From contig JADZDP010000177.1 of NCBI GenBank assembly GCA_020850995.1, positions 4,712 through 68,711 of the forward strand: DNA of 64,000 nucleotides. The letters are read 5' to 3'. How positions within the stretch are numbered: the stretch's first letter is position 1; each line of letters begins with the position of its first letter. Under the pieces are notes generated by a model. It saw only the letters and a list, made by a program, of their open reading frames with translations, did no database searches and was not told the DNA's origin. This DNA is from Deltaproteobacteria bacterium. Its GTDB lineage: Bacteria; Myxococcota; UBA727; VGSZ01. A program made the position numbers and the translations under genes. Shown here in pieces: positions 2,866-39,836 of the stretch.

Positions 2866-3816
2866 GTGGCAACCAAAACACTCTTTCACATGGACGTTGG
2901 CTCGGCTGAGTACCAGTCGTGTCGAGGCCAAGCGCACGTTCGCGCAGCCATCGAGGAGGCGTTCGCGGCCTATGCACCAATCGCCGACGTGGACTACGTC
3001 GACGCGTTTCGGACGCGGACAACGCAGCGGCTCTGGGAGCTCTTCACCTTTCACGTCCTGCGACGAGACGGGAAAGATCCAGCGTCACCGCGGCGGCACA
3101 CCGTTGACGACCGCGTCGTCGAGGGCGGCCCGGACTTCCTGCTCCAGGGCTCGCCCCGCGTGTGGGTGGAGTGCGTCGCTTCGGGTCCGGGTGAGGGCGA
3201 GAACCGCGTCGCGCCGATGCCCGATGGTTTCGGCACCTACGCGGTCGTGGACCCGAAGGCGGACCTGCGATTGGTGACCTCGGTGGATGAGAAGCGAAAG
3301 AAGTTCGACGGGTACCGCTCGCGGGGCATCGTGCAGGACGGCGACGTCAACGTCGTCGCCCTGCATGCGCGCGACGTGCACCCGTTCGTCGACGCGTCGG
3401 CAGAGCTCGGTGTCCCGGTGTACGTACGCATGCTCTACGGGCTCGGCGCCTACTACGAGAGGGTCGTCCCGGTTGGCGACGGCAGCGTCATCTTCCCGGG
3501 CGCCGAGTGGGAACGCCGCATTGTGGTCGAGAAGCGGCGTGACGAGCACGGTGTCATCGAGGTGGGCACTGCGCTGTTCTTCGAAGAGCGCTACGCGCAG
3601 GTCTCGGCGCTGATCGGTGGAATGCCGGGCGCGCGAGCGTTCCTCGACGACGACGAGCTTCGCGGCAGGGGTCTCGTCATCGTGCATAACCCGCGTGCCA
3701 AGGCGCCGCTGCCGCGCGGCTTCTTCGGCTTCGGCGCGGAGTACTGGGTCGAAGGCTGGGACGGCACGCGCGGTACACTCGCTGTCCGTGAGGCAACGAG
3801 GGACGCGCCGCGCTGA
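2866..3816 (+). CDS. Hypothetical protein (no recognisable domain)
   Basis: 316-aa ORF with normal amino acid composition and GC3-rich codon usage. The exact start is uncertain (M at 2866 or the internal M at 2888). Confidence 0.5.
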   Translation: MATKTLFHMDVGSAEYQSCRGQAHVRAAIEEAFAAYAPIADVDYVDAFRTRTTQRLWELFTFHVLRRDGKDPASPRRHTVDDRVVEGGPDFLLQGSPRVWVECVASGPGEGENRVAPMPDGFGTYAVVDPKADLRLVTSVDEKRKKFDGYRSRGIVQDGDVNVVALHARDVHPFVDASAELGVPVYVRMLYGLGAYYERVVPVGDGSVIFPGAEWERRIVVEKRRDEHGVIEVGTALFFEERYAQVSALIGGMPGARAFLDDDELRGRGLVIVHNPRAKAPLPRGFFGFGAEYWVEGWDGTRGTLAVREATRDAPR

Positions 3817-9062: not shown

Positions 9063-11129
9063 ATGACGCGCACCGTGGCTCCCTTCACCCTCCGGTTCTT
9101 GCTCCTCGTGGCCGCGCTCGTCGCGGTGGCCGCCGCCTGCGGCGAGCCCTCGAAGGGTGACGCCAAGAAGGCGCCGAGCACGCCGGCCGTGGCGGCGCCG
9201 GGCCTCGACAAGGTCGCGCGCGTCGACTTCAACCGCCGCGCCGCCGAGCTGTTCTTGCCCTTGTTCTGGATCGAGGACAAGAACGGCAACAATGCCCTCG
9301 ACGTCGACGAGCTAGCGGTGTTGTGGGGCATCGGCCCGGCGCAGGCGGCGGACGCCTGGCTGAAGGATGGCGCCTTCACGAAGGCCTTCCTGGACGCCTA
9401 CGCGGCGATGCAGCAGCCGGCTGACACCGGGGCCGACGCCGCCGACCAGGCACGCCGCCAGGCCGTGCTCGACGAGCTCGGCCAGGGCCGCCCCACGCTC
9501 GTGCTCACCGACACCACGGGCTTCAGCGACAACGACAAGGCCATCGTCAAGTCCATCATCGAGGCGGCGCAGCTCATCGAGCAGATCTACGCCAAGCAGG
9601 TGGGCGTGGCAGAGCTGCGCACGACGGTGCCGAACGACGACAAGGCCTCGCAGATGTTGCTCCACCGCAACCAGACCACCGCCTGCGCGGCGCCGAAGAC
9701 CGAGAAGAACCCCGAGTGCTCGGCGGTGAAGTCCAAGCAGAAGCCGAGCTCGGGCCTGTACCCGGCCAAGCTGCAGGGGGCCGACGGCAAGTTCTGCGAG
9801 GTGCTCGAGAAGCGCAAAGACGCCGACAAGCTCTTGCACCAATTCGTCACGGTGACGGCGCGGGCGGGCGGCAAGAGCGAGGGCAACGCCGCCACCGACG
9901 AGCTCGAGCCCGTGCCCTACCACGTGGCCTACCAGGCCGAGATGGCGGCGGTGAGCGCCAAGCTCAAGGCCGCCGCCACCCACACGGGCGCCAGCGAAGC
10001 GCCCTTCGCCGCCTACCTGTTCGCCGCCGCCCAGGCCTTCCTCGACGACAAGTGGGGCCCGGCCGACGAGGCCTGGGCCAAGATGAACGCCGAGAACAGC
10101 AAGTGGTACCTGCGCATCGGCCCCGACGAGACCTACTTCGAGCCCTGCTCGCGCAAGGCGGGCTTCCACGTCTCGTTCGCGCGCATCAACCAAGACTCGC
10201 TCGCCTGGCAGAAGAAGCTCGAGCCCTTCAAGGCCGAGATGGAGGGCGCGCTCGCCGCGCTCGCCGGCCCGCCCTACAAGGCGCGCGAGGTCAGCTTCCA
10301 CCTGCCCGACTTCATCGACGTGGTGTTGAACGCCGGCGACTCGCGCGACGCGCTCGGCGGCACCATCGGCCAGTCGCTCCCCAACTGGGGCGCCGTGGCC
10401 AACGAGGGCCGCGGCCGCACGGTGGCCATGGTCAACCTCTACACCGACAAGGACAGCGAGGCGGCGTGGACCAGCCAGGCCTCTTCGCTGTTCTGCAAAG
10501 ACACCATGGCGGCCGCCAGCTTCGACCCGAAGCTCGCCGTCATGTCGACGGTGCTGCACGAGGCGGCGCACAACCTGGGCCCCGCCCACGAGTACAAGGT
10601 GGGCGGCAAGACCGACGATCAGATCTTCGGCGGGCCGATGGCCTCCATGCTCGAGGAGCTGAAGGCGCAGACCGCGGCGCTCTATTTCTCCGAGTGGCTC
10701 GTGAGAAAGGGCGCGGTGGACGCGCAGGCGGCGGCGGGCTCGCACCTGCGCGACGTCACCTGGGCCTTCGGCCACATCGCCGCCGGCATGTACAACGCCG
10801 AGGGCAAGATCAAGGCGTACAGCCAGCTCGCGGCCATCCAGATGGGCACGCTCTACAAGCAGGGCGCGCTCACCTGGAACCCCGAAGAGCTTGCCGCCAA
10901 CGGCAAGGACAAGGGCTGCGTGCGGGTCGACCTCGCCAAGTGGAAGCCCGCGGTGGACGAGCTCGCCAAGGTGGTGCTCGGCATCAAGGGGCGCGGCGAC
11001 AAGGCGCTGGCGGAGCAGACGCGCAAGGGCATCGTCGACGACGACCAGGAGTTCGCCAAGCTGCGCGAGCTCATCACCGAGCGCTGGCTGCGCACGCCCA
11101 AGGCCTCGTTCGTGTACGCCATTCGCTGA
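9063..11129 (+). CDS. Lipoprotein, putative gluzincin-type Zn metallopeptidase (HEXXH...E)
   Basis: Signal peptide plus lipobox (VAAAC). HEAAH motif (VLHEAAHNLG) with EEL 25 aa downstream. The family is not identified. Confidence 0.55.
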   Translation: MTRTVAPFTLRFLLLVAALVAVAAACGEPSKGDAKKAPSTPAVAAPGLDKVARVDFNRRAAELFLPLFWIEDKNGNNALDVDELAVLWGIGPAQAADAWLKDGAFTKAFLDAYAAMQQPADTGADAADQARRQAVLDELGQGRPTLVLTDTTGFSDNDKAIVKSIIEAAQLIEQIYAKQVGVAELRTTVPNDDKASQMLLHRNQTTACAAPKTEKNPECSAVKSKQKPSSGLYPAKLQGADGKFCEVLEKRKDADKLLHQFVTVTARAGGKSEGNAATDELEPVPYHVAYQAEMAAVSAKLKAAATHTGASEAPFAAYLFAAAQAFLDDKWGPADEAWAKMNAENSKWYLRIGPDETYFEPCSRKAGFHVSFARINQDSLAWQKKLEPFKAEMEGALAALAGPPYKAREVSFHLPDFIDVVLNAGDSRDALGGTIGQSLPNWGAVANEGRGRTVAMVNLYTDKDSEAAWTSQASSLFCKDTMAAASFDPKLAVMSTVLHEAAHNLGPAHEYKVGGKTDDQIFGGPMASMLEELKAQTAALYFSEWLVRKGAVDAQAAAGSHLRDVTWAFGHIAAGMYNAEGKIKAYSQLAAIQMGTLYKQGALTWNPEELAANGKDKGCVRVDLAKWKPAVDELAKVVLGIKGRGDKALAEQTRKGIVDDDQEFAKLRELITERWLRTPKASFVYAIR

Positions 11130-14780: not shown

Positions 14781-15698
14781 ATGGTGGTGCTGCCGCTCGC
14801 TCTGCTGCTCGCGCTCGCTCCGCCGGCGCCGGCGGGCACCGCGCTGGCCGACGAGCTGCGCCGCGCCCGCGCCGACGACGTGGAGCTCGATGATCGCCTG
14901 TCGGCGGCGCGCCGCGCCTATGGCCTGGTGGCCAACGCCGAGACCACGGCGCTGTTCAAGGCCACCTTCCTCGACGTCGAGCGCGATCTGCTGGCGCACA
15001 CCCGCGCCTTCGAGCGCCTGCGCGCCTCGTGCGTCTCGCCCGACGCGGCGCCGCTCGGCGTGGAGGGCTGCGTGCGCGAGCTGGCGGCGCGCTCGTCGGC
15101 GCGCGCCATGCTCGTCGACGTCCAGGGCGACGAGGTGGTGAGCGTGGTGCTCGGCACCGACGACGCCGCGCTGCACGTGGTGCACGGCGTGGTGCGCCGC
15201 GCGCTGCAGCAGCGGGGTCGGCTCACCCTCGATCTCGAGGTGGCGCGCGCGCGCATACCGCGCGACGGGGCCCTCGAGCGCGCCCTCTTGAGCGCGCTGC
15301 CGAACGCGCCGCGCGCCGACGCCTTCGCGGGCCCGGTCTTGTCGCGCACCTCTCGTGAGGTGCTGGCGGCGCTGCCCGAGCGCGCCGTGGAGCTCACCGG
15401 CGTCGCCGGTCACCGTGTCATCCCCGAGCGCTGCGCCGGCGCTCCCACCACGCGCATGCTCGAGCAGAGCTGGCTCGGCCAAGCGCACGTCGCCTCGACG
15501 GCCGCGGGCGTCACCAGCCGCCAGGTGGTGTTCGACGCGTGGCGCGTCGAGCGTGGCGCCGAGCTCGCCCTCGACGGCCGCCACCCCCTGCGCGTCACCT
15601 GGCCGACGGCGGAGGGTGACGTCATCGAGCTCGACGGCGTGGCGTGGGGCGCCACCGAGGCCTTCCCGCGCGCGCCGGCGCTCAACTGTCCTCGCTGA
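14781..15698 (+). CDS. Hypothetical secreted protein
   Basis: Signal peptide (MVVLPLALLLALAPPAPAGTA). No domain recognised. Confidence 0.4.
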   Translation: MVVLPLALLLALAPPAPAGTALADELRRARADDVELDDRLSAARRAYGLVANAETTALFKATFLDVERDLLAHTRAFERLRASCVSPDAAPLGVEGCVRELAARSSARAMLVDVQGDEVVSVVLGTDDAALHVVHGVVRRALQQRGRLTLDLEVARARIPRDGALERALLSALPNAPRADAFAGPVLSRTSREVLAALPERAVELTGVAGHRVIPERCAGAPTTRMLEQSWLGQAHVASTAAGVTSRQVVFDAWRVERGAELALDGRHPLRVTWPTAEGDVIELDGVAWGATEAFPRAPALNCPR

Positions 15699-16302
15699 GC
15701 TGCTGGTCCACGGCCGCGCCGCTCGCGGTCGAGGCACGCAGCAAGGCGTGCACCGCGCGAAAGAGCGCGCGGCTCGCGTGCGGCGCCTTGCCCTTGCTGT
15801 GCTCCAGCGCAGCCTGGCGCGCGAGCTGGCGCAGCGCGGTGCGGTCGGCCGTGGGCTGCTCGACGACGAGCGCGGCCAGCGCCGCGTCACCCTCGGTGAC
15901 GAGACGGTCGCGCCAGCGCTCGGCGGCCTTGAAGGCGGCCGACGAGGGCGCGTCTTCCTGCAGCAGGGCCTGCAGCTGCGCATCGATGGGGCGCGCGTCG
16001 ATGGTGCGCATGATGCGGCCGATGAACTGGATCTGGCGCCGGTAGCCGCCGTGCGCGGTGATGCGCCGCGCCTCCATGACCGCGGCCTTGAGGTCGTCGG
16101 GCAGCTCGAGGCGCGCGAGCTTGCCCCCGGGCAGCTTCACTAGCGCCTCGCCGAGCTTCTCGAGGCGCCACGCGCGCTCCTTCTTGGCGGCCCTGGTCTC
16201 GCGCTCCTCACCCTGGTCCACCAGCTCGCGGTTGGCGGTGGCGTTGGCCTCGGCGAAGGGATCGACGCCGGGCTCGCCTTGCTCACGTCGTCGTCGGCTC
16301 AT
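15682..16302 (-). CDS. yjgA: YjgA/DarP (DUF615) 50S ribosomal subunit assembly factor
   Basis: Aligns with E. coli YjgA along its length: [32 protein letters not shown] vs [66 protein letters not shown] vs [35 protein letters not shown]. Confidence 0.8.
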   Translation of the reverse strand: [206 protein letters not shown]

Positions 16303-16699
16303 GCTTCACGCTCCTCGACCCTTGGCGAGCGATGCGCTCCACCAAGCTCGCTAGCTGCGCGGCCAGCGCGGCGGCGTCGGCGCTGGCGGCCTCGGGTTTG
16401 ACGATCACGATCAGGTCGCGCGCGTCCAGCCACTCTTTGTGGCGCCGCACGATCTCGCGCAGGCGCCGCCGCACCCGGTTGCGCACCACGGCGTTGCCCA
16501 CCTTCTTCGAGACCGTGAAGCCCACGCGCCCGGGCCTACCGTCGCGGCGCATGCGGGCCAGCAGCACCAGGAGCGCGCCGGCCGTCCGTGTGCCCTGGCG
16601 CTCGATGCGCGTGAAGTCGCCGGAGCGCAGCACCCGACGCTGCGGCGGCAGGCCCTGCGGCAGCTCGTGCACGGTGCGCGCGACGCGCGTCGCGCTCAC
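16283..16699 (-). CDS. rnpA: RNase P protein component
   Basis: [25 protein letters not shown] motif. The start was placed at a GTG overlapping the rpmH stop (GTGA), 16699 by residue counting in table ORF 16283..17134. An alternative start is the GTG at 16633. Confidence 0.75.
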
Positions 16700-16854
16700 T
16701 TCTGGTAGATGGTCGGGGTCAGGCGCTTGCGCCCGTGGGCGCGGCGGCGCTTGATGACGTTCTGGCCGCCGGGGGTGGCCATGCGGGCGCGGAAGCCGTG
16801 AGTACGGGCGCGCTTCACACGGGACGGCTGATAGGTACGAAGGGGCTTGGCCAT
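16696..16854 (-). CDS. rpmH: 50S ribosomal protein L34
   Basis: Reverse-strand translation gives [52 protein letters not shown]. It is below the 60-aa threshold of the ORF track. Coordinates are anchored by residue counting within table ORF 16283..17134 and may be off by 1 nt. Confidence 0.85.
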
Positions 16855-17318
16855 ACGGGCTCCACGTCTCGCGACGGAAGAGAGTGATCGGGGCGAAGGT
16901 GCTGGTTGGTGCCGCGCTTGTCAACGGGTGGCCGTGGGGCCTCGATCGGACCTGATGTATCGCCCTGCGAGCACGCCGGGGGCCTCTGCAGATCTCGGTC
17001 CGGTCGTTCGTTGCGCTCGCGTGACGGCGCGCCCGTCGCCGTCGATCCATCATCGACGATCGCGGTGCGCAGCGAGACGCGCGCGCGCAATCCGCGAGAT
17101 CCGAGCGCGAACGCCGATGAGGATCGGCGCGCATGTCCGCGGAAGATCGTGCTCGCGCAGATTCTTCGCCGAATCGCTTGCGGGGGCGACGAAGCGTCTG
17201 GTACAGGAACGCTCCCCGTCGACGAAAGGGTCGACATCACAACCACGCTGCCGTCAGGAGGGGTCACGCCACGCGCGACTCCGAGGGACGGCCGTCACCG
17301 TGGAGAGGCACCGCAGGC

Positions 17319-18800
17319 ATGACGCCGCGAAAGAGCGCGCCACCGTCCGACCAGCAGCGCCCGGGTGCACCCGTGGCCGCGCCCGGCGCCGATGGGGCCC
17401 CGGCGGCGCGCGTGCTGGCCGCGGTGCTCGAGCGCCTCGCACAGCGGGTGAGCCTGTTTACCTTCCGCGGCTTCCTGGAGCCGCTGCGCCCCGTGGCGCT
17501 CGCGCCTGATGACCAGGGCGCCCCCGAGCTCTTGCTGTCGGCGCCCACCGACTTCCTGCGCGACTGGGCCCGCGACCACTACCTCGAAGAGCTGACGCGC
17601 GAGGCGACCGCCGTGCTGGGCGCGGCCGTGGGGGTGCGCATCGTTGTGGCCCAGGGCGCGCCGGCCCCCGAGCCCGCGGCGCCGACGCTGGCCGCGCCGC
17701 GCGCCACGCCCTCCACGCTGCCACCGGCGGCGGTGGCGGCCGAGCTCGTGCCCTTCCGCGGCGCGCGCGAGCGGCCCGCTCGGCTCTCACCGCGCTACTC
17801 CTTCGAGTCCTTCATCACCGGCCCCTCGAACCGCATGGCCTACGCCGCCTGCACGGCGGTGGCCGAGCAGCCGGGGGCGCGCTTCTCGCCGCTCTTCTTG
17901 TTTGGCGGCACGGGCCTCGGCAAGACGCACCTCTTGCAGGCCATCGGCAACGAGGCGCTGGCGCTGCACCCCACCTTGCGCGTGGTGTACCTGAGCGCCG
18001 AGCAGTGGGTGAACGAGTACATCACCGAGATCCAGCACAAGCGCTTCGATGACTTCCGTCGTCGCTACCGCGACGGCTGCGACCTGTTGCTCATCGACGA
18101 CATCCAGTTCCTGGCGGGCAAGAACGCCTCGCAAGACGAGTTCTTCCACACCTTCAACGCGCTCTACGAGGCGCACAAGCAGATCGTGGTCACCTCCGAC
18201 CGCTATCCGCACGAGATCGCCGGGCTCGAGGATCGGCTCAAGACGCGCCTGCAGTGGGGCCTGGTGGCCGACGTGCAGCCGCCCGAGATCGAGACGCGCC
18301 TGGCCATCCTCGGGCAGAAGGCGCACGGCATCGGCTGCGCCTTGCCCGTCGACGTGGCCGAGTTCTTGGCCACCACGGTGACCTCGAGCGTGCGCGAGCT
18401 CGAGGGCGCCTTGGTGCGCCTGATGGCCTTCGCGCAGATCACGCGCGAGCCCATCACGCTCGCGGGCGCGCGCGAGCAGCTGCGCCCGGTGCTGGCGCTC
18501 AAGGCCACCGAGGTGCCCATGGGCCGCGTCATCGAGGTGGTGGCCACCTACTACGGGCTGCGCGCCAAGGACCTCACGGGGCCCTCGCGCCAGCGCCAGG
18601 TGACGCGCGCGCGTCAGGTGGCGATGTTCCTCGTGCGCCAGCACCTGGCGCGCAGCCTGCCCGAGATCGGGCGCGCCTTCGGCGACCGCGACCACACCAC
18701 GGTGCTGGCCAGCGTGAACAAGATCGCCGGCCTGCGCGAGGGCGACGCGGGCATCCAGGCAGTGCTCTCGCGCCTGGCGGCGAGCCTGTTCGGCGGCTGA
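17319..18800 (+). CDS. dnaA: Chromosomal replication initiator DnaA
   Basis: AAA+ Walker A GGTGLGKTHLL; DnaA signature regions (LLIDDIQFLAGK, C-terminal HTH VAMFLVRQHLARSLPEIGRAFG.RDHTTV). Start set to ATG 17319 (MTPRKS...). The 5' part of table ORF 17133.. is a frame shadow. Confidence 0.9.
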   Translation: MTPRKSAPPSDQQRPGAPVAAPGADGAPAARVLAAVLERLAQRVSLFTFRGFLEPLRPVALAPDDQGAPELLLSAPTDFLRDWARDHYLEELTREATAVLGAAVGVRIVVAQGAPAPEPAAPTLAAPRATPSTLPPAAVAAELVPFRGARERPARLSPRYSFESFITGPSNRMAYAACTAVAEQPGARFSPLFLFGGTGLGKTHLLQAIGNEALALHPTLRVVYLSAEQWVNEYITEIQHKRFDDFRRRYRDGCDLLLIDDIQFLAGKNASQDEFFHTFNALYEAHKQIVVTSDRYPHEIAGLEDRLKTRLQWGLVADVQPPEIETRLAILGQKAHGIGCALPVDVAEFLATTVTSSVRELEGALVRLMAFAQITREPITLAGAREQLRPVLALKATEVPMGRVIEVVATYYGLRAKDLTGPSRQRQVTRARQVAMFLVRQHLARSLPEIGRAFGDRDHTTVLASVNKIAGLREGDAGIQAVLSRLAASLFGG

Positions 18801-18872
18801 GGTTCGCGCCCGGCGCTGCAAGCGCTGGAATTCGCTCGTACAATCAAAATTTCAGCGGGCCGGGGATTGATC

Positions 18873-18888
18873 TGGCCTGATTTACGCT
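18873..18888 (+). promoter_or_regulatory. Candidate sigma-54 (-24/-12) promoter upstream of glnA-family gene
   Basis: TGGCCTGATTTACGCT matches GG-N10-GC (consensus TGGCACG-N4-TTGCW). It lies in a locally AT-rich intergenic region about 65 nt upstream of ATG 18954. Confidence 0.25.
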
Positions 18889-18953
18889 AAAACTCCCGCC
18901 ATCAAGGCTTCACTGGCCTGTTTCTTGACGAGCCTCTTGCCCAGGAGCACCCC

Positions 18954-20390
18954 ATGACAACGCCCGCGCTGCGCGACTTCTTGGAGATCCCCTACGACAA
19001 GCTCGAGGACATGAACCTCGAGCTCAAGGCTGCGCGCCTGTCGCGCACCAGCGCGGACAAGCTGCGCGAGGCCCGGCTCAAGTACCTGACCGACGAGAAG
19101 CGCATCAAGGCCGTCACCGTCTGCTTCACCGACCTCGAGGGTCGGCTGCAGATGCTCGACTACGACAAGAAGTTCCTGCTCAAGAGCGCCGACAACCTCA
19201 CCTTCGACGGCAGCTCGGTGCGCGGCTTCTCGGCGCAGCACGAGAGCGACCTGCGCCTCAACGTCGACTGGTCGTCGTTCTACTGGCTGCCCGCCGACGT
19301 GTTTGGTCCGGGCAAGGTGCTGGTGTTCTCCGAGGTGCTCGACCGCGACGGCAACCTGTACGCCTCCGACATGCGCGGCCGCCTCAAGCGCTTCACCGAC
19401 GAGATGTTCGCCAAGGATCAGGTGCTGTGCCACGTCGCCCCCGAGATCGAGGGCTTCCTCTTCGAGGGCAGGGACGCCGAGCGCCGCTACCACGAGACCG
19501 GCAAGTTCGACTACGTGTCGACGGGCGGCTATTACCACTCGCTGCCGGGCGACAAGCTGCGCGCCTTCATCGACGCCGCCGCCGAGGTGCAGCGCGCCAT
19601 GGGCTTCGGCAACGAGAAGGACCACCCCGAGGTGGCGCCCTCGCAGTTCGAGATGAACTTCGCCTACAGCGACGTCATCATCACCGCCGACCAGGTGCAG
19701 CTCTACAAGCTCTTGTGCCGTCAGGTGGCGTCGAACCTCGGCATGACGGCGAGCTTCTTGCCGAAGCCGGTCACCGGCATCAACGGCAGCGGCATGCACA
19801 CCAACATGTCCTTCAACAAGGCGGGCAAGAACCTGTTCTGGGAGAAGGGCGGCAAAGACAACTTGAGCCAGGCCGGCTGGGACGCGATCGATCGCATCCT
19901 CACCTCCGCCGACGACATCTGCTTGATCCTGAACTCGTCGGTCAACGCGTATCGCCGGCTCGACCCGCACTTCGAGGCGCCCAACCAGATCAAATCGAGC
20001 GCCAACGACCGCGGCTCCATGGTGCGCATCCCCACGGGCAACGAGAAGAGCGCGCGCATCGAGGTGCGCAGCGTGGGCCCCGACGCGAACCCCTACCTGA
20101 CCTTCTACACCATCGCCAAGACGGCGCTCGAGGGCCCGCGCTCCGTGGCCGACGAGGCCAAGCGCGCGCGTACGCGCTACCTGCCGGACAACATCAACGA
20201 CGCCATTCGCCTCTTCAAGGGCAGCAAGTGGGCGGCCGATCTGCTCGGCGAGGCCGTGCAGACCAAGTTCGCCGACCTGAAGCAGATGCAGGCGGACCGC
20301 TGCAGCAAGGCGCTCGGCGCCCTCATCAAGGTGCCCGAGATCCAGTTCCACCACGAGGTCACGAACCAGTACCTCTGGTCGAAGTTCTGA
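18954..20390 (+). CDS. glnA: Glutamine synthetase family protein
   Basis: GS signatures HPEVAPSQFEMNF, KPVTGINGSGMHTNMS, NAYRRL; 478 aa. Confidence 0.85.
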   Translation: MTTPALRDFLEIPYDKLEDMNLELKAARLSRTSADKLREARLKYLTDEKRIKAVTVCFTDLEGRLQMLDYDKKFLLKSADNLTFDGSSVRGFSAQHESDLRLNVDWSSFYWLPADVFGPGKVLVFSEVLDRDGNLYASDMRGRLKRFTDEMFAKDQVLCHVAPEIEGFLFEGRDAERRYHETGKFDYVSTGGYYHSLPGDKLRAFIDAAAEVQRAMGFGNEKDHPEVAPSQFEMNFAYSDVIITADQVQLYKLLCRQVASNLGMTASFLPKPVTGINGSGMHTNMSFNKAGKNLFWEKGGKDNLSQAGWDAIDRILTSADDICLILNSSVNAYRRLDPHFEAPNQIKSSANDRGSMVRIPTGNEKSARIEVRSVGPDANPYLTFYTIAKTALEGPRSVADEAKRARTRYLPDNINDAIRLFKGSKWAADLLGEAVQTKFADLKQMQADRCSKALGALIKVPEIQFHHEVTNQYLWSKF

Positions 20391-32867: not shown

Positions 32868-32897
32868 GGGACACCCTCGGAGGGACGGGGCGGAGTG

Positions 32898-32987
32898 GCG
32901 GAGAGAGAGGGATTCGAACCCTCGAGACGGTTTCCCGCCTACGCGATTTCCAGTCGCGTGCCTTCAGCCACTCGGCCATCTCTCCAC
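32898..32987 (-). tRNA. tRNA-Ser (anticodon GGA)
   Basis: Reverse complement reads GGAGAGATGGCCGAGTGGCTGAAGGCACGCGACTGGAAATCGCG...long variable arm...GGGTTCGAATCCCTCTCTCTCCGCCA, a class II cloverleaf. Coordinates approximate to 1 nt. Confidence 0.85.
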
Positions 32988-33102
32988 AGGCACCGCCGGG
33001 ACGCCGCTCATCTAGCGGATCTTTTTCCGCGCGTCGACGCCCACGGTTGAGGGCCCTGCGCCAGCGTTGACGACACCCGTGGTGCTGGCTACCTTGGTCA
33101 GC

Positions 33103-33192
33103 GGACAGCTGGCCGAGTGGCTGAAGGCACCTGACTCGAAATCAGGAGTACCCGCAAGGGTATCGGGGGTTCGAATCCCTCGCTGTCCGCCA
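33103..33192 (+). tRNA. tRNA-Ser (anticodon CGA)
   Basis: GGACAGCTGGCCGAGTGGCTGAAGGCACCTGACTCGAAATCAGG...GGGGGTTCGAATCCCTCGCTGTCCGCCA, divergent from the other tRNA-Ser. Coordinates approximate to 1 nt. Confidence 0.85.
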
Positions 33193-33263
33193 TCTTTCTC
33201 GACGACAAACCGCTTCGCAGCACACAAGGGCACACCCCTTGCTGCGCAGTGGTTTTCGCGCCC

Positions 33264-33338
33264 TCTGACTGGGTATCTGACAGGGAGCGGCTCGTGACGA
33301 TGACGTCTTGCCGCCGAGACAGGGTGTTTGACAGGGAA
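33264..33338. repeat. Direct-repeat motif copies (TCTGACTGGG, TCTGACAGGGAG, TTTGACAGGGAA) upstream of the NTase operon
   Basis: 33271-33286 gggtatctgacaggga; 33322-33338 gggtgtttgacagggaa. The same two motifs recur fused at 37712-37737. Confidence 0.5.
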
Positions 33339-33393
33339 AGGCCGCGAGATCGAGACTCTAGTTTTCTCGCTTCGGGAATGTTATGATCTAGAT

Positions 33394-33855
33394 ATGACGC
33401 TCGACAACGCAACCCTTCGCGACGCGTTGACCGCCCTCGGTGAGCTCCTCGTCGACCGCGGTGAGACCTACGACATCGTCGTCATCGGAGGCGGTGCATT
33501 GTTGCTCGGCGGCCACATCGAGCGGCCGACGAAGGATCTCGACGTCCTCGCGCGCATCGAGGGTGATCGCTGGCTCAGCGCGCAGCCGCTGCCCGATGCG
33601 CTGCGCGCCGCCGTCGCCGATGTCGGCGACGCGTTCGGGCTCGCGCGTGACTGGCTCAACTGCGGGCCGACGTCCCTGCTCGCGGGCGGGCTCCCCGACG
33701 GCTTCCCGGAACGGTTGAGCATCGAGCGTTTCGACGCGCTGACGCTCCTCACATCGGCGCGGTGGTGCCGCACGCACGATGCCTCCGAGGGCTTTCGCGG
33801 GCGGCAGCTTCTGCCGGTGCTGCAAGAGCTCGGTGTCGAGGTCGCCGATGTCTAG
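33394..33855 (+). CDS. Nucleotidyltransferase-fold (pol-beta superfamily) small protein
   Basis: hG[GS]-x13-DhD pattern (VVIGGGALLLGGHIERPTKDLDVLARI). Start taken as ATG 33394; the TTG start of the table ORF (33328) lies inside the repeat motif. Translationally coupled to the next gene. Confidence 0.5.
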   Translation: MTLDNATLRDALTALGELLVDRGETYDIVVIGGGALLLGGHIERPTKDLDVLARIEGDRWLSAQPLPDALRAAVADVGDAFGLARDWLNCGPTSLLAGGLPDGFPERLSIERFDALTLLTSARWCRTHDASEGFRGRQLLPVLQELGVEVADV

Positions 33856-34786
33856 CGCCGTCCAGAAGCAGGCCGCGGATCTCGCTTGGAGCCTCTGGAC
33901 GGAGCTCGGCATCGCCGGCGTCGTGCGGGAGCATGCCCACGTGGCAATCGATCCCGAGCCGCTCTTCGTCGCCACGCCGCTCCTTGCAGCGCACGACGCG
34001 CGCCTGCTCGAACAGGTGTCACGTTGGAGCGTGCTCTTCGGCGACTGGCTCGCGATGAGCCGAGTGCAGGCGCTGTGCAAGGCGGCGGAACCCACCGTGC
34101 ATGACGCGTTCGTGTCCTTCGCCGCGTCGATCCCCGGTGGGGGGCGGTGGACGTGTGAGGCCACGAAGATGTCGAAGCAGAAGAACCCGCCGCAGCTGAC
34201 GTCGATGGAGCTGCCGCTCTTGCGACCGGCGCTGGTCCGGCTGCGCCTGCGCGCGATATGCGGCGTCGGTGCACGCGCCGACGTCGTCGCAGAGCTCATC
34301 GGGCACGCGCGCGTATGGTTGCGTGCGTCCGACTTCGAGCATCTCGGCTACACGAAGAGAAACGTCGCTCGCTTGCTGTCCGAGCTCTGCGACGCCGGGT
34401 TTCTGCGGTCGCTGAAGGAGAAGAACGCGATCGCCTATCGCCTCGCCGACGGCGGGCGGTGGTCTGACCTCGTCGGCGCCACGGCCGTCACGTGGCCGGC
34501 ATGGCCCGCAATCTTCGACTTCGCCCGGTTGGCGCTGCGGCTCGATGGGGAACGTGCGAAGAGCGAAGGCGTGCGCCGGGTCGCGGCGGCCCAGACAGCG
34601 CACGCGCTCGAGCCGCTTTGCGATCGCTTGGACCTCGCGCAACCGCCGACCGCGACGGCGAATCCCCAGGCGTGGGCCGCAACGACCGCGTTCGTGGAGC
34701 GCGAGGTGGCAGCCTTCGCGGGCGCGACGTCGCCGTCGATGTCGCGTGCCGGCGGAGCTCGCGGCCGCGTCAGTGCCGCGCGTTGA
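33848..34786 (+). CDS. Hypothetical protein with predicted winged-helix segment, partner of the NTase-fold gene
   Basis: ATG 33848 overlaps the NTase stop. TKRNVARLLSELCDAGFLRSLKEKNAIAYRLAD resembles a wHTH. One Rx5H (RASDFEH) occurrence is noted but not diagnostic. Confidence 0.45.
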   Translation: MSSAVQKQAADLAWSLWTELGIAGVVREHAHVAIDPEPLFVATPLLAAHDARLLEQVSRWSVLFGDWLAMSRVQALCKAAEPTVHDAFVSFAASIPGGGRWTCEATKMSKQKNPPQLTSMELPLLRPALVRLRLRAICGVGARADVVAELIGHARVWLRASDFEHLGYTKRNVARLLSELCDAGFLRSLKEKNAIAYRLADGGRWSDLVGATAVTWPAWPAIFDFARLALRLDGERAKSEGVRRVAAAQTAHALEPLCDRLDLAQPPTATANPQAWAATTAFVEREVAAFAGATSPSMSRAGGARGRVSAAR

Positions 34787-34831
34787 TCGCGTCGCGCCGC
34801 GTCGCCGTGTCGACGAAACGGCGCTCACTCG

Positions 34832-35935
34832 TCAGCGTCCACATACCGGGCACGCAAGCCGCCCTTGCGCCGATGGCGCGCATCGTTCGCAAAGCAGGTG
34901 GATCTTGTCGTCGCATACCGCGGGGCGAGCGGCAGGGAGCAGGCAGCCGTCGCACGCAGGCACGTCGAGCGTGCGCGCGGCCGAGGGGAGGTGCAGGCTC
35001 AGCACGCGCTCCTCCTTCCGTCGACGCACGCGCACGTCGACGACGATCGTGGGCACTTCGACGACGGCGGCGAAGACGATCGTCGCGCGCGCACGCAACG
35101 TGTAGCGGGCGCGCAACTCCGCCAACTTCGCCGCGCGCTCATTCTCGAGATGTTCGACGCGGGCTTTGACCGCCGCCGGATCACGTTGCTTGCGACCGGT
35201 ACGCGTTTCGTAGATGAGCTCGTGAAAGTACGCATCGACGCGCTCGTGGTCGCGCCGGTGCCGGCGGGCGACGTTGTCCTGATGTGCGCCGGCGAGCGCG
35301 GCCAGCCGGGCGCGCAGCCGGGGCGGGAGGACCTCCGCGCGCACCGCAGGGAGGGCGCGGTGCGCTCCACGAAGCGCGCTCGTGGTGTCGAGCGCGAGCG
35401 CCGCGACCAGGGCCGAGTCCGGCGCGGCGCCGTCCGATGCGCACAACGCCAGCACCTCGAACGCCTCGTCGCGGTCGTCCGCCTCGACGACGAGGCGCGT
35501 GCCGACGAACGCGTACGCCTCGTTGCGAGCGCGTACCGCGCCGACGTCGACAACCGCGTTGCGCAGCGCGAAGCGGGCCGCGAGCGCCTCGGCCTGGCTC
35601 GCGCGCGGTGCCGCCAGCTCTGCGTCGGCGACGACGTACCCACGCAGCGACGAGCGCTCATCGACCAACCGATCGAGGAGCCCGGTCCCGAGCCCGCACG
35701 CAACGGCCCCTGTCCGTGCGGCTGACGCGACCTGCACCTCCTCCTGGAGCGCGAGCCGGGTGGCCAACGCCGACGGGAGGATCGCGAGGGCCTCCTCCTC
35801 GCCGTCGGCTGCGTTGGCGACCTCGACGAGCGCGCCGTCGCGCGCGAGGGCGTCCGCGCAGAAGCGCACGGGGCTCGGCAGTGTCGCCGGCAGTGTCGCC
35901 GGCAGTGTCGTCGGCAGCGCGGGCAGCGAGGTCAT
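34832..35935 (-). CDS. Hypothetical protein with C-terminal Cys-rich Zn-ribbon-like tail, co-operonic with SNF2 helicase
   Basis: C-terminus VPACDGCLLPAARPAVCDDKIHLLCERCAPSAQGRLACPVCGR (8 Cys + 1 His). The 4-nt overlap (35932-35935) with the upstream helicase gene implies coupling. Confidence 0.5.
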   Translation of the reverse strand: MTSLPALPTTLPATLPATLPSPVRFCADALARDGALVEVANAADGEEEALAILPSALATRLALQEEVQVASAARTGAVACGLGTGLLDRLVDERSSLRGYVVADAELAAPRASQAEALAARFALRNAVVDVGAVRARNEAYAFVGTRLVVEADDRDEAFEVLALCASDGAAPDSALVAALALDTTSALRGAHRALPAVRAEVLPPRLRARLAALAGAHQDNVARRHRRDHERVDAYFHELIYETRTGRKQRDPAAVKARVEHLENERAAKLAELRARYTLRARATIVFAAVVEVPTIVVDVRVRRRKEERVLSLHLPSAARTLDVPACDGCLLPAARPAVCDDKIHLLCERCAPSAQGRLACPVCGR

Positions 35936-37626
35936 GCGGCGAAGTCCTCGCCGAACACCGCGTCGTCGAGCTTCTTGGAGTTCTCGTACGTTCCGCGCGC
36001 CGCGCCGATCTCCGCCGCGAGCGCGTCGAAGCCACGGTCGATCTCCGCCTCGTCCTTGCTGGCGGCGTAGAGCGCGAGCACGCGCTCCTCGAGGTCGCGG
36101 TCATCGGCGAGGTTGCCGAGCACCATGTCCATCTCGCCGACGACGAGCTCGAACAGATGGAGCCGCCGATCGAGCACGTCGAGCAGCTTCTCCTCCGCCG
36201 ACCCCTTCATCGCGAGGTTGTAGACGTGCACGTCGCGCGTCTGGCCCATGCGGTGGACGCGGCCGATGCGCTGCTCGAGCAGCATCGGGTTCCACGGCAC
36301 GTCGAAGCTGACGACGACGTTGCAGTGCTGCAGGTTGGTCCCCTCGGCGCCGACGTCGGTGGACACGAGGGCGCAGCGCTCCTCGCGGAACCGCTCGACG
36401 GCGAGCGCCTTCTCGTCGGCCGACTGCGCGCCAGAGACCACGACGTGCCGCACGCCAGCGTCGTTGAACGCGCGCTCGATCGCCGCCAGCGTCGCGCGGA
36501 AGCGCGTGAACACCAGCGCGTGCCCGCCGTGCGCCCGCACCAATGCGACCAGCTGCTCGAGCTTCTTCGTCTGCGTCGCGGCCCGTGCCGCCTCGCGGGC
36601 AGCGGCGAAGGCGGGACCGTCGAGCGCGGTCGCGCGGTCAAGCGTGGCGCGCACGGCGTCAGGGCTCGAGCCCGCCTCGAGGAGCAGCGTGGTGCCGAGG
36701 AGCGTTCGCCGCGCGGCCTGCGCGTCGGCGCGCACGAGATCGACGACCCGATCGTAGAGCGCGCGCTCCGCGGCCAGCGGCTCGACGACGGCGGTGGTCA
36801 CGAAGCGCGGCGGCAGCTTCAAGCCGCACGCCGCGCGCGTGTTGCGCACCATGACGTCCCCAAGCAACTGTCGCAGCCGCTCGCGGTTCTTCGGCGAAGT
36901 CGGATCGGACTTGTCGACGAACTGCGCCTTGAACGCCGACGCCGTCGTGAGCTGGCCCGGCCGCAGCAACGTGACGAGCGCGTACAGCTCCTCGAGGCTC
37001 GTCTCGATCGGCGTGGCGGTGAGCAGCAGCAGGAAGCGGCTCTTCAGGCCGTCGACGAGCTTGTAGCCGAGGGTAGACTGCTTCTTGATGTGGTGGGCCT
37101 CGTCGACGACGACGAGATCCCACGAAGCGCTCTGGAGCAGTGGCGCGACTTTGGCGCCGCGCGCCTTGGCGAGCGACGCGAGCACGACACCGTCCCTCGC
37201 GAGGAACGCCGCCGGGTCTTGTTCGAAGGCGTGGTCATCGAGCGTCGCGGCCTGCACTCCGGCCTTCGCGAGGAGCTCGCCCCGCCACTGCGGAACGAGC
37301 GCCGGCGGTGCGATCACGAGGGTGCGGCGCGCCATGCCGCGCAGTTGGTACTCGCGCAGCACGAGGATCGCCTCGACGGTCTTGCCGAGCCCGACCTCGT
37401 CGGCGAGGAGCGCACGGCCGCGGAGCACGCGGAGCACGCGCCGGACGGTGTCGTGCTGGTAGGTGTGCGCGTCGACGCCGGCGAGCGACTGTGGCGAGAG
37501 CAGGTCGGTGAACGTCGCGGCCGACGCGAGGGTGTGCGCGCGCACCGCGAGCGAGAGGTCGACGAGCGTCATGGGCGCGCGCAGCAGCGCTGTGACGTCG
37601 CCCGTCGTCACGTCGGCGATCTCCAT
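35932..37626 (-). CDS. Compact SNF2-family (HepA/RapA-like) helicase/ATPase
   Basis: Motif I DEVGLGKT; motif II DLVVVDEAHHIK; motif III LLLTATP; C-terminal helicase motifs ...TDVGAEGTNLQ... and RIGRVHRMGQ; 564 aa. Confidence 0.8.
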   Translation of the reverse strand: MEIADVTTGDVTALLRAPMTLVDLSLAVRAHTLASAATFTDLLSPQSLAGVDAHTYQHDTVRRVLRVLRGRALLADEVGLGKTVEAILVLREYQLRGMARRTLVIAPPALVPQWRGELLAKAGVQAATLDDHAFEQDPAAFLARDGVVLASLAKARGAKVAPLLQSASWDLVVVDEAHHIKKQSTLGYKLVDGLKSRFLLLLTATPIETSLEELYALVTLLRPGQLTTASAFKAQFVDKSDPTSPKNRERLRQLLGDVMVRNTRAACGLKLPPRFVTTAVVEPLAAERALYDRVVDLVRADAQAARRTLLGTTLLLEAGSSPDAVRATLDRATALDGPAFAAAREAARAATQTKKLEQLVALVRAHGGHALVFTRFRATLAAIERAFNDAGVRHVVVSGAQSADEKALAVERFREERCALVSTDVGAEGTNLQHCNVVVSFDVPWNPMLLEQRIGRVHRMGQTRDVHVYNLAMKGSAEEKLLDVLDRRLHLFELVVGEMDMVLGNLADDRDLEERVLALYAASKDEAEIDRGFDALAAEIGAARGTYENSKKLDDAVFGEDFAA

Positions 37627-37711
37627 GGGCGGCGGCTCGACGCCAGCACCTCATCGCGAACGCGCGTCGCCATCGCCGCCGAGTAGCTGAAACGGCGGGC
37701 CGTTGCGATCC

Positions 37712-37737
37712 GGTTTGACAGGGAATCTGACAGGGTA
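37712..37737. repeat. Second copy of the TTTGACAGGGAA + TCTGACAGGG motif pair (same orientation), ~85 nt upstream of the helicase start
   Basis: ggtttgacagggaatctgacagggta; compare 33264-33338. Confidence 0.5.
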
Positions 37738-38009
37738 CGCCGTGCGAACGGTGCCCCTCGGTGCGCACACCGCCGCTCGCGCCGGCGGAGCCGGACGCGG
37801 CCGGCGCCGGGGCGTCGTACGTCTCGAACGTGCGCGTCCTGCAACGCGACGATGGACCAGCCCAGTAGCTCGGCTTCTCAGCTCGATTCACCCACCTATG
37901 GCCCTGGTGGCCGTGGCCGGTCTACGTTCACGACGCGGCGAGCCCCGCGGGGCGCCGATTCGCGCGCCGCTCGTCCAGAGAGCACACGCCCCGCGCAGAG
38001 GACCGGCTC

Positions 38010-39191
38010 ATGAAGAAGGCCACAGCCAGACTACGAGCGACCCGGTCGATCACGCTCTCTATCGCCAACTTCGCCCAGATCCGCAGTGTCGACCTCGCGC
38101 TTGGCGACCTGACCGTCCTTGTGGGTCCGCAAGGCGCAGGCAAGAGCCTCGCTCTACAGTGGCTCAAGGCGGGGATGGACGGGAAGCAGGTCATCGATGC
38201 GCTGCGCGCCGCCGGTCACCCCACCGAAAGATCCGACGTCGTCGTTGACCTCATCTTCGGCACCGGCATGGCACCGGCATGGCGGGCCGACTCGACCGTC
38301 ACTCTCGACGGAAAGACCATCACTCCGAAGGTACTGAGTCGTGTTGGAAACGGAGAGGAGCGCCTCTTCTTCATTCCTGCGCACCGCTCGATGCTGATTA
38401 GCGACGGCTGGGCGGCGCCCTTCCAAAAGCTCGGCTCCGACACCCCGGCAGTGGCGCGCCTCTTTAGCCAGAACCTCTTTGATCGCTTCAGCGGCAAGGA
38501 CGCGGGCACGCTCTTCCCCGTGGAGAAGCGCCTCAAGGCGGAGATCCGAAAACAGATCGACGACGCTGTCTTTCACGGTGGCAAGGTCGGAATCGCAGAG
38601 GATGCTCAGCATGCCCGTCGCCTCCGCCTCGCGCACGGGGACATGCACCTGCCGTTCATGACGTGGACTGCGGGCCAGCGCGAATTCACCCCACTCCTCC
38701 TCGCCCTCTATCACCTCCTCCCTTCGACCAAGCTGCGCAAGCGCAAAGGGACGGACTGGGTCGTTCTCGAGGAGCCGGAGATGGGACTTCACCCGCAAGC
38801 GATCACAGCTGTGATGCTGCTCGTCCTCGATCTCCTCTGGCGCGGCTACCGGGTCGTGATGTCGACTCACTCCCCGCACGTGCTGACCATGCTGTGGATG
38901 ATGCAGCGCCTCAAGGAGAACGCCGCTCGGTGGCAGCTCGTCTGCGAGGCCTTTGACGTGAAGGTACCGGCGCAGATGCGCAAGGTCGCGGAGGCCGCGC
39001 TCCAAAAAGACTACCGCGCCCACTTTCTGACATTCGGCAACGATGGGCATGTGACGTCGACGGAGATCACCGGTCTCGACCCATCTTCGGAGAACGAGGG
39101 CGAGGCCGAATGGGGCGGTCTCACGGGCTACTCGTCGCGTTTCGGTGACGTCGTGCGCAAGGCAGTGAACGAGGCCGAGAGTGGGCGCTAG
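38010..39191 (+). CDS. ABC-type (AAA_21/OLD-like) ATPase
   Basis: Walker A GPQGAGKS; Walker B/D-loop WVVLEEPEMGLHPQ; H-loop STHSPHVL; 393 aa. Codon usage and GC look visibly lower than the surrounding DNA. Confidence 0.7.
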   Translation: MKKATARLRATRSITLSIANFAQIRSVDLALGDLTVLVGPQGAGKSLALQWLKAGMDGKQVIDALRAAGHPTERSDVVVDLIFGTGMAPAWRADSTVTLDGKTITPKVLSRVGNGEERLFFIPAHRSMLISDGWAAPFQKLGSDTPAVARLFSQNLFDRFSGKDAGTLFPVEKRLKAEIRKQIDDAVFHGGKVGIAEDAQHARRLRLAHGDMHLPFMTWTAGQREFTPLLLALYHLLPSTKLRKRKGTDWVVLEEPEMGLHPQAITAVMLLVLDLLWRGYRVVMSTHSPHVLTMLWMMQRLKENAARWQLVCEAFDVKVPAQMRKVAEAALQKDYRAHFLTFGNDGHVTSTEITGLDPSSENEGEAEWGGLTGYSSRFGDVVRKAVNEAESGR

Positions 39192-39660
39192 CAAGGGCAG
39201 GAAGGCGACGCCCGTAAGGGCCGCGCTGGTCGACAACAGCCACCTGCTCAACCTCATTCAGGAAGGCCTCGGCGCGCTCAAGAGCTCGGACAAGGCCCTC
39301 ATCGCTGCCGAGCTCAAGTCCGCCTTCCTCGACAGCATCGACATCGACACAGGGCTCAGGGCGGGACACGATCAGGAGAATCGCTGGGACTACTTGCTAG
39401 GTCACGGGGCGAGAGAGGTTGTCGTTGCGCTCGAGACGCACGCAGCTCGCCAAGGAGAGATTCGCACGATCATCAGGAAGCGCCGCGCGGCGCTTGAACA
39501 GCTCAGGCCCCACCTGCGCGCCGGCTCCAAGATCACCGCGTGGTTCTGGGTTGCAACCGGCTCCGTCCGCTTTGCCGACACAGAGAAGGCCCCCCGCATA
39601 CTCGATCAGAATGGGATCACGTTCGTCGATAGGTGCCTCAAGGGGGCGCACCTCCGATGA
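39181..39660 (+). CDS. Small hypothetical protein (159 aa) coupled to the ABC ATPase; possible effector
   Basis: Overlaps the ATPase 3' end by 11 nt. No motif recognised with confidence (acidic-residue cluster ...VVVALETH...). Confidence 0.4.
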   Translation: MGASKGRKATPVRAALVDNSHLLNLIQEGLGALKSSDKALIAAELKSAFLDSIDIDTGLRAGHDQENRWDYLLGHGAREVVVALETHAARQGEIRTIIRKRRAALEQLRPHLRAGSKITAWFWVATGSVRFADTEKAPRILDQNGITFVDRCLKGAHLR

Positions 39661-39836
39661 GCGCCTCACCGCGGAGATCCGTTGCAGCCGTGGTCGACAC
39701 CTGTGGTCCTCGCCACAATCCTTGCGTCGCGTCCTTGCCACGCACCACGGACCACGCAGCCGCGGTGCTCCATGGGCTCCTGGCATGTCCCTGTGCCGGG
39801 CTCGATCACTGCGGTCGACCTTCGCAGTAGCGCCCG

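Follow-up and report, generated by a model that had tools for sequence, protein, structure and literature searches.

The separation of dnaA from the replication origin (oriC) and from dnaN is known from Sorangium, cyanobacteria, and Escherichia coli, and the dnaA locus described here is a new case in a poorly known lineage of Myxococcota. It lies on contig JADZDP010000177.1 of a Deltaproteobacteria bacterium, in a stretch of 64,000 nucleotides that is referred to as a whole (64 kb) as the window, and loci retrieved from relatives are designated by L-numbers. In E. coli, about 42 kb separate dnaA from oriC, which is located between gidA and mioC. In the dnaA promoter region of that species, SeqA sequesters 9 GATC sites that lie within 225 bp (PMC5835720). 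In the cyanobacteria Microcystis and Prochlorococcus, oriC adjoins dnaN and carries TTTTCCACA boxes (PMC2650636). Within the Myxococcota, the predicted oriC of Sorangium cellulosum So ce56 is flanked by a kinase gene and dnaN and is nearly 2 Mb away from dnaA (PMC2650636, PMC8538405), with TTATCCCCC proposed as the DnaA box (PMC2650636) and no skew inversion reported (PMC8538405).

The window resembles the Sorangium case in several respects, since both concern high-GC Myxococcota with dispersed dnaA and dnaN, an origin assigned upstream of dnaN, and an uninformative GC skew. The precedent of such myxobacteria, to which an earlier note on this DNA had appealed, is real. Moreover, a C-rich box is common to both, namely TTATCCCCC in Sorangium and nTTTCCCCA in the GC-rich relatives of the window. 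However, the DnaA of the window belongs to a separate, deep, and uncultured clade, its gene keeps rpmH–rnpA as neighbours, and its relatives have gidB–parAB–bactofilin on the origin side, the predicted origin loci being those of the relatives. With E. coli, the window has in common putative divergent rpmH and dnaA promoters, a predicted origin away from dnaA and beside gid genes, and, as a suggestive likeness, a GATC-dense dnaA promoter region (9 sites in 225 bp in E. coli versus 8 in 260 bp), whereas the dnaA–dnaN–recF order and the autoregulatory promoter DnaA box of E. coli are both missing from the window. In cyanobacteria the origin likewise goes with dnaN and not with dnaA, and TTTTCCACA is also the commonest box in two low-GC relatives of the window (L085 and CP060221), but cyanobacteria are another phylum without the parAB–gidB linkage of these relatives. 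Finally, canonical Myxococcota are of the same phylum and have the same junction of rpmH–rnpA with a divergent dnaA, although they carry yidC after rnpA, dnaN–recF–gyrB after dnaA, and perfect boxes on both sides, none of which is found in the window.

We consider it probable that the dnaA of the window is an orthodox gene parted from oriC, that oriC is found at dnaN, and that both spacers flanking dnaA are promoter regions. An origin elsewhere is favoured because the DNA contacts of DnaA are ordinary, the boxes of the clade sit at dnaN, and the rpmH–dnaA spacers of the window, L172, and L001 are devoid of TCC[AC]CA cores. As judged from relatives, oriC of this genome most likely lies outside the window, beside dnaN.

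Gene order around dnaA

Gene identities in the window were assigned from Pfam and NCBIfam profile scores against cut-offs. The resulting order is darP, rnpA, and rpmH on the minus strand, a GC-rich spacer of 464 bp, and dnaA followed by a glutamine synthetase (GS)-family gene on the plus strand:

15682–16302, minus strand: darP/yjgA, ribosome biogenesis factor of DUF615 (PF04751, 1.3e-45; NF003593, 151.7 bits, cut-off 70)
16283–16699, minus strand: rnpA, RNase P protein component (PF00825; TIGR00188, 82 bits, cut-off 38; gene call in L081)
16696–16854, minus strand: rpmH, ribosomal protein L34 (PF00468; TIGR01030, 72.5 bits, cut-off 37.7)
16855–17318, no strand: rpmH–dnaA spacer, 69% GC, without DnaA-box-like site or AT-rich element
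17319–18800, plus strand: dnaA, 493 amino acids, four domains (PF11638, PF00308, PF08299; TIGR00362, 483 bits, cut-off 343.9)
18801–18953, plus strand: dnaA–GS spacer, the AT-richest stretch of the window, without DnaA-box-like site
18954–20390, plus strand: GS-family gene (PF00120, PF03951)

The identities and coordinates that the earlier note had given for rpmH–rnpA–yjgA on one side of dnaA and a GS gene on the other hold, and the rpmH–dnaA spacer is GC-rich as described, with a length of 464 bp in place of 465 bp. The darP gene overlaps the stop of rnpA by 20 nt and, since rnpA overlaps both of its neighbours, rpmH, rnpA, and darP are probably one operon in which darP is the last gene. An identical order, with darP after rnpA, is found in L001, L081, L172, and L181, and dnaA is followed by the GS-family gene in L081 and L172 and probably also in L181, in contrast to L001. 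The GS-family protein scores 249 bits against the type-I GlnA profile TIGR00653, which has a cut-off of 429.15, and it also stays below the cut-offs of type III and GlnII. Because 249 bits fall short of 429, the gene is referred to as a GS-family gene and not as a proven canonical glnA; thus, of the sigma-54-type glnA previously proposed after dnaA, the family assignment stands and the type-I assignment does not. Its product may be a GS-like amide ligase for another substrate.

The near-universal order of rpmH–rnpA–yidC and dnaA–dnaN–recF is broken on both sides, as the earlier note had stated. No match to DnaN, RecF, GyrB, or YidC is found by tblastn anywhere in the 64-kb window, so that neither yidC after rnpA nor dnaN–recF–gyrB after dnaA is present; the same four queries were all found in most of the Myxococcota loci retrieved. 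Moreover, Pfam scans of the other open reading frames (ORFs) of the window revealed no parAB, gidAB, mnmE, or gyrase genes. An exact-sequence look-up with the DnaA of the window gave no match, and the same look-up with the GS-family protein led to a near-identical contig (L081, GCA_041918315.1), an independent contig of 12.6 kb that is 99% identical over 12.4 kb and has a matching arrangement. This arrangement recurs in two further species, represented by L172 (a 906-kb contig; DnaA 82% identical) and L181 (DnaA 78% identical). Since it recurs in L081, L172, and L181, an assembly artefact is ruled out, and the unusual gene order around dnaA is a real, lineage-wide rearrangement in an uncultured myxobacterial clade.

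DnaA and the predicted origins beside dnaN

The DnaA of the window is orthodox. Apart from exceeding the TIGR00362 cut-off with all four domains, its AAA+ motifs (Walker A and B, sensor, and arginine finger) are unbroken. In domain IV, the residues that contact bases are intact as well, R399, P423, D433, H434, and T435 being kept in the alignment (numbering and contacts follow the E. coli DnaA domain IV–DNA structure). Position 439 is Ala in the window, and Ser or Ala in canonical myxobacteria with perfect boxes. Exotic boxes are not expected, since the domain IV contacts are kept and clade members use ordinary or nTTTCCCCA boxes; on the same grounds, the divergent boxes that had been suggested as an option at this locus find no support. 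The dnaA start at 17319 matches the gene call in the 99%-identical contig L081, and an extension to an upstream ATG at 17133 was rejected, as conservation is lost and frame-breaking indels appear before 17319 in the alignments with relatives.

A DnaA scan of one genome per species, in which the best 80 loci were kept, gave a top identity of 67% (L001, a 'delta proteobacterium' metagenome-assembled genome). Neighbour-joining trees unite the window, L172, L001, L084, L087, L002, L086, L003, and L006 in one deep Myxococcota clade, which also includes the lower-GC L085, L004, L088, L005, L007, and L174 (closed genome CP060221.1) and is set apart from all other DnaA sequences retrieved. Most of the Myxococcota loci retrieved (Kofleriaceae, Polyangia) have yidC…rnpA–rpmH divergent from dnaA–dnaN–recF–gyrB, with perfect TTATCCACA/TTGTCCACA boxes before dnaA and again in the dnaA–dnaN interval of the canonical loci. 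In L001, L002, L003, L006, and L084, dnaA is not followed by dnaN, and no box with one mismatch or fewer occurs within about 20 kb.

Two more groups of Myxococcota dnaA (L010, L013, and L042; L011, L015, L020, and L031) are devoid of a downstream dnaN, an upstream rpmH, and a DnaA box. One of them nests inside canonical Polyangia DnaA and the other is flanked by an extracytoplasmic function (ECF) sigma factor and an AMIN-domain gene, and they are either independent relocations or paralogues. In L042, four periodic repeats of 12 bp (GACCGATCGnTT) are located at about 9074–9150, just before or inside the dnaA start.

The DnaN of L085 was used as a query to find clade-specific DnaN proteins and, from these, their contigs, which yielded seven dnaN loci. 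In L085 (DnaA 51% identical, GC content 0.49), Pfam matches give the order dnaA and pepN, an oppositely oriented dnaN, a spacer, gidB, parA, parB, and bactofilin in one direction, and then gatB, rnpA, and rpmH in the other, and the dnaN–gidB spacer contains 11 boxes at one mismatch or fewer in 400 bp. In L164, L166, L167, and L168-170 (GC contents 0.66, 0.54, 0.72, and 0.64), a spacer of about 0.5 kb separates dnaN from a divergent series formed by a small ORF, an HHH_3 protein gene, dtd, gidB, parA, parB, and bactofilin, and no dnaA occurs within 10 kb of dnaN. The 6-kb contig of L176 (GC content 0.68) holds gidB and dtd, the same two small genes flipped in orientation, a 0.7-kb spacer, and dnaN, and has no dnaA. 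In the closed 2.5-Mb genome CP060221.1, rpmH, rnpA, and gatB face parB and gidB, which are followed by a spacer and a divergent dnaN; dnaA (at 1.2332 Mb) lies 90 kb away, and the gidB–dnaN spacer (at 1.3236 Mb) carries boxes and a 40-mer of 7% GC.

The seven dnaN spacers are alike in the features expected of origins. Firstly, TCC[AC]CA cores reach 4.3–21/kb within them versus 0.2–1.2/kb in the rest of each locus. Secondly, the most AT-rich 40 bp of each spacer is at its dnaN-side end, with 7–23% GC in low-GC genomes and 33–40% in genomes of 64–72% GC. The boxes are of the TTATCCACA/TTTTCCACA type in low-GC relatives and of the nTTTCCCCA/CTCTCCACA type in GC-rich ones. In none of the seven loci does dnaA adjoin the box spacer, from which it is about 4 kb away in one locus. 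Moreover, the dnaN of L167 (contig_20123, 276 kb) and the dnaA of L001/L171 (contig_20088, 255 kb) belong to one record, ERZ25039495, and are at least about 140 kb apart according to the contig coordinates. Because both contigs are in ERZ25039495, a box-less rpmH–dnaA spacer and a dnaN spacer with boxes plus a DNA unwinding element (DUE) coexist in the genome of L001. The suggestion of the earlier note that oriC is elsewhere is thus supported by comparison, as the dnaN loci of seven relatives hold box clusters and the rpmH–dnaA spacers of the window, L172, and L001 hold none.

In the clade, DnaA boxes of the ordinary or C-rich kind, and after them an AT-rich unwinding element, would make up the origin in a spacer of about 0.5 kb upstream of dnaN. 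The origin would adjoin gidB, usually with parA–parB–bactofilin beyond, and dnaA would be at distances between 4 kb and well over 100 kb.

Some further observations concern these predicted origins. In L167 (9880–9960), L168 (9850–9910), and L176 (3370–3430), a core beside dnaN combines the box ATT(T)CCCCAG, TGATCGRAG, and CAATTGA(T) at the AT-rich patch, and the motif ATTTCCCCAG...TGATCGRAG...CAATTGA is found in all three. No copy of this dnaN-side DUE motif of GC-rich relatives occurs in the window, and the TGATCGRAG/CAATTGA core could be a search signature for the origin of the clade. In the predicted-origin spacer of L176, moreover, a 13-nt unit (AGAGCACGGACGA) is present in six tandem copies at 3141–3225. 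In L164–L168 and L085, bactofilin stands directly after parA–parB beside the predicted origin, a linkage that recalls the bactofilin–ParABS organisation reportedly described for Myxococcus xanthus.

The spacers flanking dnaA and other features of the window

The cluster of DnaA boxes between rpmH and dnaA that, according to the earlier note, a conventional origin would show was not found. At two mismatches or fewer, TTATCCACA has no match in the rpmH–dnaA spacer and none in the dnaA–GS spacer, and its 28 matches in the whole window equal the chance level of 27.8 expected from shuffles, in agreement with the previous impression that convincing boxes are missing from the former spacer. The relaxed pattern TTNTNCACA gave 32 matches in the whole window versus 39 expected, and box variants of the Sorangium, Caulobacter, and Streptomyces types do not cluster in the window. 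TCC[AC]CA cores are absent from the rpmH–dnaA spacers of the window, L172, and L001, and form no cluster across the window. The lowest GC content in any 40 bp of the rpmH–dnaA spacer is 57%, so that 16855–17318 contains neither a box cluster nor an AT-rich unwinding element.

This spacer is instead interpreted as a regulatory region with divergent promoters, on the basis of alignments of two or three species in which the window is compared with L172 (67% identical across the spacer), L181, and, for some blocks, L001. The conserved parts are the rpmH leader, CGATCG…CTGATGYAT, GCAGATCT, AGATCCGA, and GTCCGCGGAAGATCG, together with the first four of the following features, the fifth belonging to the dnaA–GS spacer:

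16886–17148, no strand: GATC array, eight sites starting at 16886, 16944, 16991, 17044, 17058, 17098, 17122, and 17145
16914–16925, minus strand: block GCGCTTGTCAAC, invariant in the window, L172, L181, and L001, reading TTGACA on the minus strand
17039–17062, no strand: 24-nt block CCGTCGATCCATCATCGACGATCG, identical in the window and L172 and conserved in part in L181
17176–17225, plus strand: candidate dnaA promoter and leader, GCTTGC (-35-like), 17 nt, TACAGG (-10-like), then TCCCCGTCGACGA
18873–18888, plus strand: sigma-54-type -24/-12 candidate TGGCCTGATTTACGCT, with GG at 18874–18875 and GC at 18886–18887

The TTGACA of GCGCTTGTCAAC is a candidate -35 element of the rpmH promoter. GCTTGC-N17-TACAGG with the adjoining TCCCCGTCGACGA is common to the window, L172, and L181 and can still be discerned in L001, and its assignment as the dnaA promoter is inferred, because a consensus sigma-70 scan, like a terminator scan, found nothing useful. 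The CCGTCGATCCATCATCGACGATCG block, midway between these putative promoters and with two GATC sites as well as an inverted repeat of 7 bp (CGTCGAT/ATCGACG), is a candidate operator or regulator-binding site. De novo k-mers common to four diverged spacers were limited to GC-rich low-complexity words and CCGATC, a repeat search of the rpmH–dnaA spacer gave short, weak repeats only, and Rfam found two tRNAs in the window and no RNA element in either spacer.

The GATC array reaches 17/kb in the spacer versus 5.6/kb in the window, that is, eight sites in 260 bp at three times the window mean, and ties with the maximum of the window, the other maxima being coding. Enrichment as such was rejected, the count not being significant against dinucleotide shuffles (P=0.11), and the case for the array therefore rests on conservation and not on density. 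All eight sites are conserved in L172 versus 34% of the 4-mers of the spacer (P~1e-4), seven of the eight are conserved in L181, and no other tetranucleotide of the spacer is conserved as well as GATC. GATC also flanks the predicted unwinding element by dnaN in the GC-rich relatives L167, L168, and L176 (P=0.01–0.05). It does not occur in the origin spacers of low-GC clade members, so that any GATC function would be sublineage-specific. Dam and SeqA are known from some Gammaproteobacteria only, and the ORFs scanned in the window, which represents 64 kb of the genome, gave no Pfam match to a methyltransferase family. We offer only tentatively, and at low probability, that the array acts as a switch, through methylation or a GATC-binding protein, that would couple dnaA expression and origin firing to fork passage; a box-less origin with low-affinity DnaA binding, or a site of DnaA titration, is less likely.

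Several points weigh against an origin at dnaN. Eight conserved GATC sites mean that the spacer is constrained beyond two promoters, and weak binding of DnaA there may occur, because the oriC of E. coli includes low-affinity DnaA sites that contain GATC. A per-gene regression on the window puts the replication term of the skew at -0.006±0.010 to the left of dnaA and +0.013±0.008 to the right, non-significant values whose sign is nevertheless that predicted if the origin were at dnaA. Moreover, the proposed location of oriC depends on relatives with 51–67% identical DnaA and not on the dnaN locus of this genome, L081, L172, or L181, and nearly all origin assignments in these relatives are predictions from sequence. 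Regarding the skew, gene orientation dominates at third codon positions (-0.13 to -0.19), the coarse GC-skew profile of the window is uninformative, and a pooled regression of third-position GC skew over four dnaA and three dnaN loci revealed a side term neither at dnaA nor at dnaN loci.

In a rival reading, the rpmH–dnaA spacer would itself be the origin, operating through weak GATC-containing DnaA sites (RGATCS, one AGATCT) in place of 9-mer boxes, with unwinding at a patch of slightly higher AT content at about 17140–17180. This spacer is in the classical origin position between rpmH and a divergent dnaA, its GATC sites are kept at 82% DnaA identity and nearly all of them in a third species, that of L001 has a similar GATC density, and the signs of the skew term are compatible. 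Nevertheless, we regard this as unlikely: the spacer has neither a 9-mer box at two mismatches nor a TCC[AC]CA core, its least GC-rich 40 bp (57% GC) contrasts with the 33–40% of the predicted origins of equally GC-rich relatives, the GATC count does not exceed that of dinucleotide shuffles, and domain IV of DnaA predicts ordinary boxes. The genome of L001, moreover, holds both a GATC-rich dnaA spacer and a separate dnaN spacer with boxes and a DUE.

It is less probable still that the dnaA of the window is a second, diverged paralogue and that a canonical dnaA–dnaN–recF–gyrB island with the origin is found elsewhere in the genome. The clade does form a long branch outside all other DnaA retrieved, other phyla included, and the two further Myxococcota dnaA sets without dnaN and boxes occur in unrelated contexts. 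However, this DnaA passes the equivalog cut-off with all motifs present, its gene keeps the ancestral rpmH–rnpA neighbours, and no assembly with two dnaA loci appeared among the best 80 loci kept per scan. A hidden canonical paralogue is unlikely because none precedes dnaN in the seven clade loci.

An origin downstream of dnaA, with 18801–18953 as its unwinding element, is the least probable of all, since this position, where many bacteria carry oriC and which includes the AT-richest 120 bp of the window, has no box-like site and a minimum of 45% GC in 40 bp, is missing as a junction from L001, and has conserved blocks that fit a GG-N10-GC sigma-54 promoter and a ribosome-binding site.

The preferred reading, in which both spacers are promoter regions, assigns the promoter and leader of the GS-family gene to the dnaA–GS spacer, as the conserved blocks of this spacer suggest. 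Its AT content had been noticed before, and the most AT-rich 120 bp of the window indeed start at 18819 within it, although it is AT-rich in relative terms only, and an origin-like combination of boxes and an AT-rich element kept in relatives does not occur there. It has in common with L172 the blocks CAAGCGCTGGAATTCGC, AATCAAAA, TTGATC.GGC, and TTTACGCTAAAAC and an AGGAG ribosome-binding site. Against the consensus applied (TGGCAC-N5-TTGC), TGGCCTGATTTACGCT is a putative sigma-54-type promoter whose GG-N10-GC spacing is conserved in L172 together with the TTTACGCTAAAAC block, its -12 element being CGCT and not TTGC. A second sigma-54-like site, TGGCCTGTTTCTTGAC at 18916–18931, was discarded, as it is not conserved in L172. 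Because L001 has no GS gene and an ORF abuts its dnaA, the spacer is not an ancestral origin but a junction that arose recently. Relative to L081 and L172, the window has a 12-nt insertion (CCTCTTGCCC-like) at 18930–18945, before the ribosome-binding site of the GS-family gene.

Elsewhere in the window, two divergent tRNA-Ser genes (GGA, minus strand; CGA, plus strand) are followed by a lower-GC stretch, and 32896–39800 looks like an integrated island with defence-type genes:

33328–33855: AbiEii/DUF6036-like nucleotidyltransferase
35932–37626, minus strand: SNF2-family helicase
38010–39191: AAA_21/AAA_15 ATPase

Paired TGACAGGG motifs occur near 33268–33340 and 37713–37735. The low-GC stretch at 38–39 kb, with three box-like matches, was considered as an origin and rejected, as it is the coding sequence of the AAA ATPase gene in the probable island. 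Further box-like matches at 27.4–27.7 kb are in a minus-strand stretch that reads as coding, in which no ORF was confirmed.

Implications for origin prediction and the control of dnaA

In the sublineage of the window, dnaA would have retained its left neighbours rpmH–rnpA, with darP now in the place of yidC, and would have gained the GS-family gene on its right. The 464-bp spacer would contain a TTGACA rpmH promoter and a TTGC-N17-TACAGG dnaA promoter in divergent orientation and, between them, six to eight conserved GATC blocks, presumably targets of regulator binding or methylation, while the AT-rich 150 bp after dnaA would provide a sigma-54-type promoter and the leader of the GS-family gene. 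In three relatives, dnaA is 4 kb, 90 kb, and no less than about 140 kb away from dnaN, distances that show a stepwise break-up of the ancestral origin island.

Pipelines for origin finding and genome rotation often use dnaA as a marker and, thus, would misplace oriC in this large uncultured lineage. The comparison provides a testable rule for the clade, namely that oriC is the box-rich spacer between gidB(–parAB–bactofilin) and dnaN, the box variant of its GC-rich members probably being nTTTCCCCA. As for the control of dnaA away from the origin, after loss of an autoregulatory DnaA box, the conserved GATC array offers a modest but real clue. If the proposed GATC switch is true, it would be a functional analogue of Dam/SeqA sequestration that arose outside the Gammaproteobacteria.

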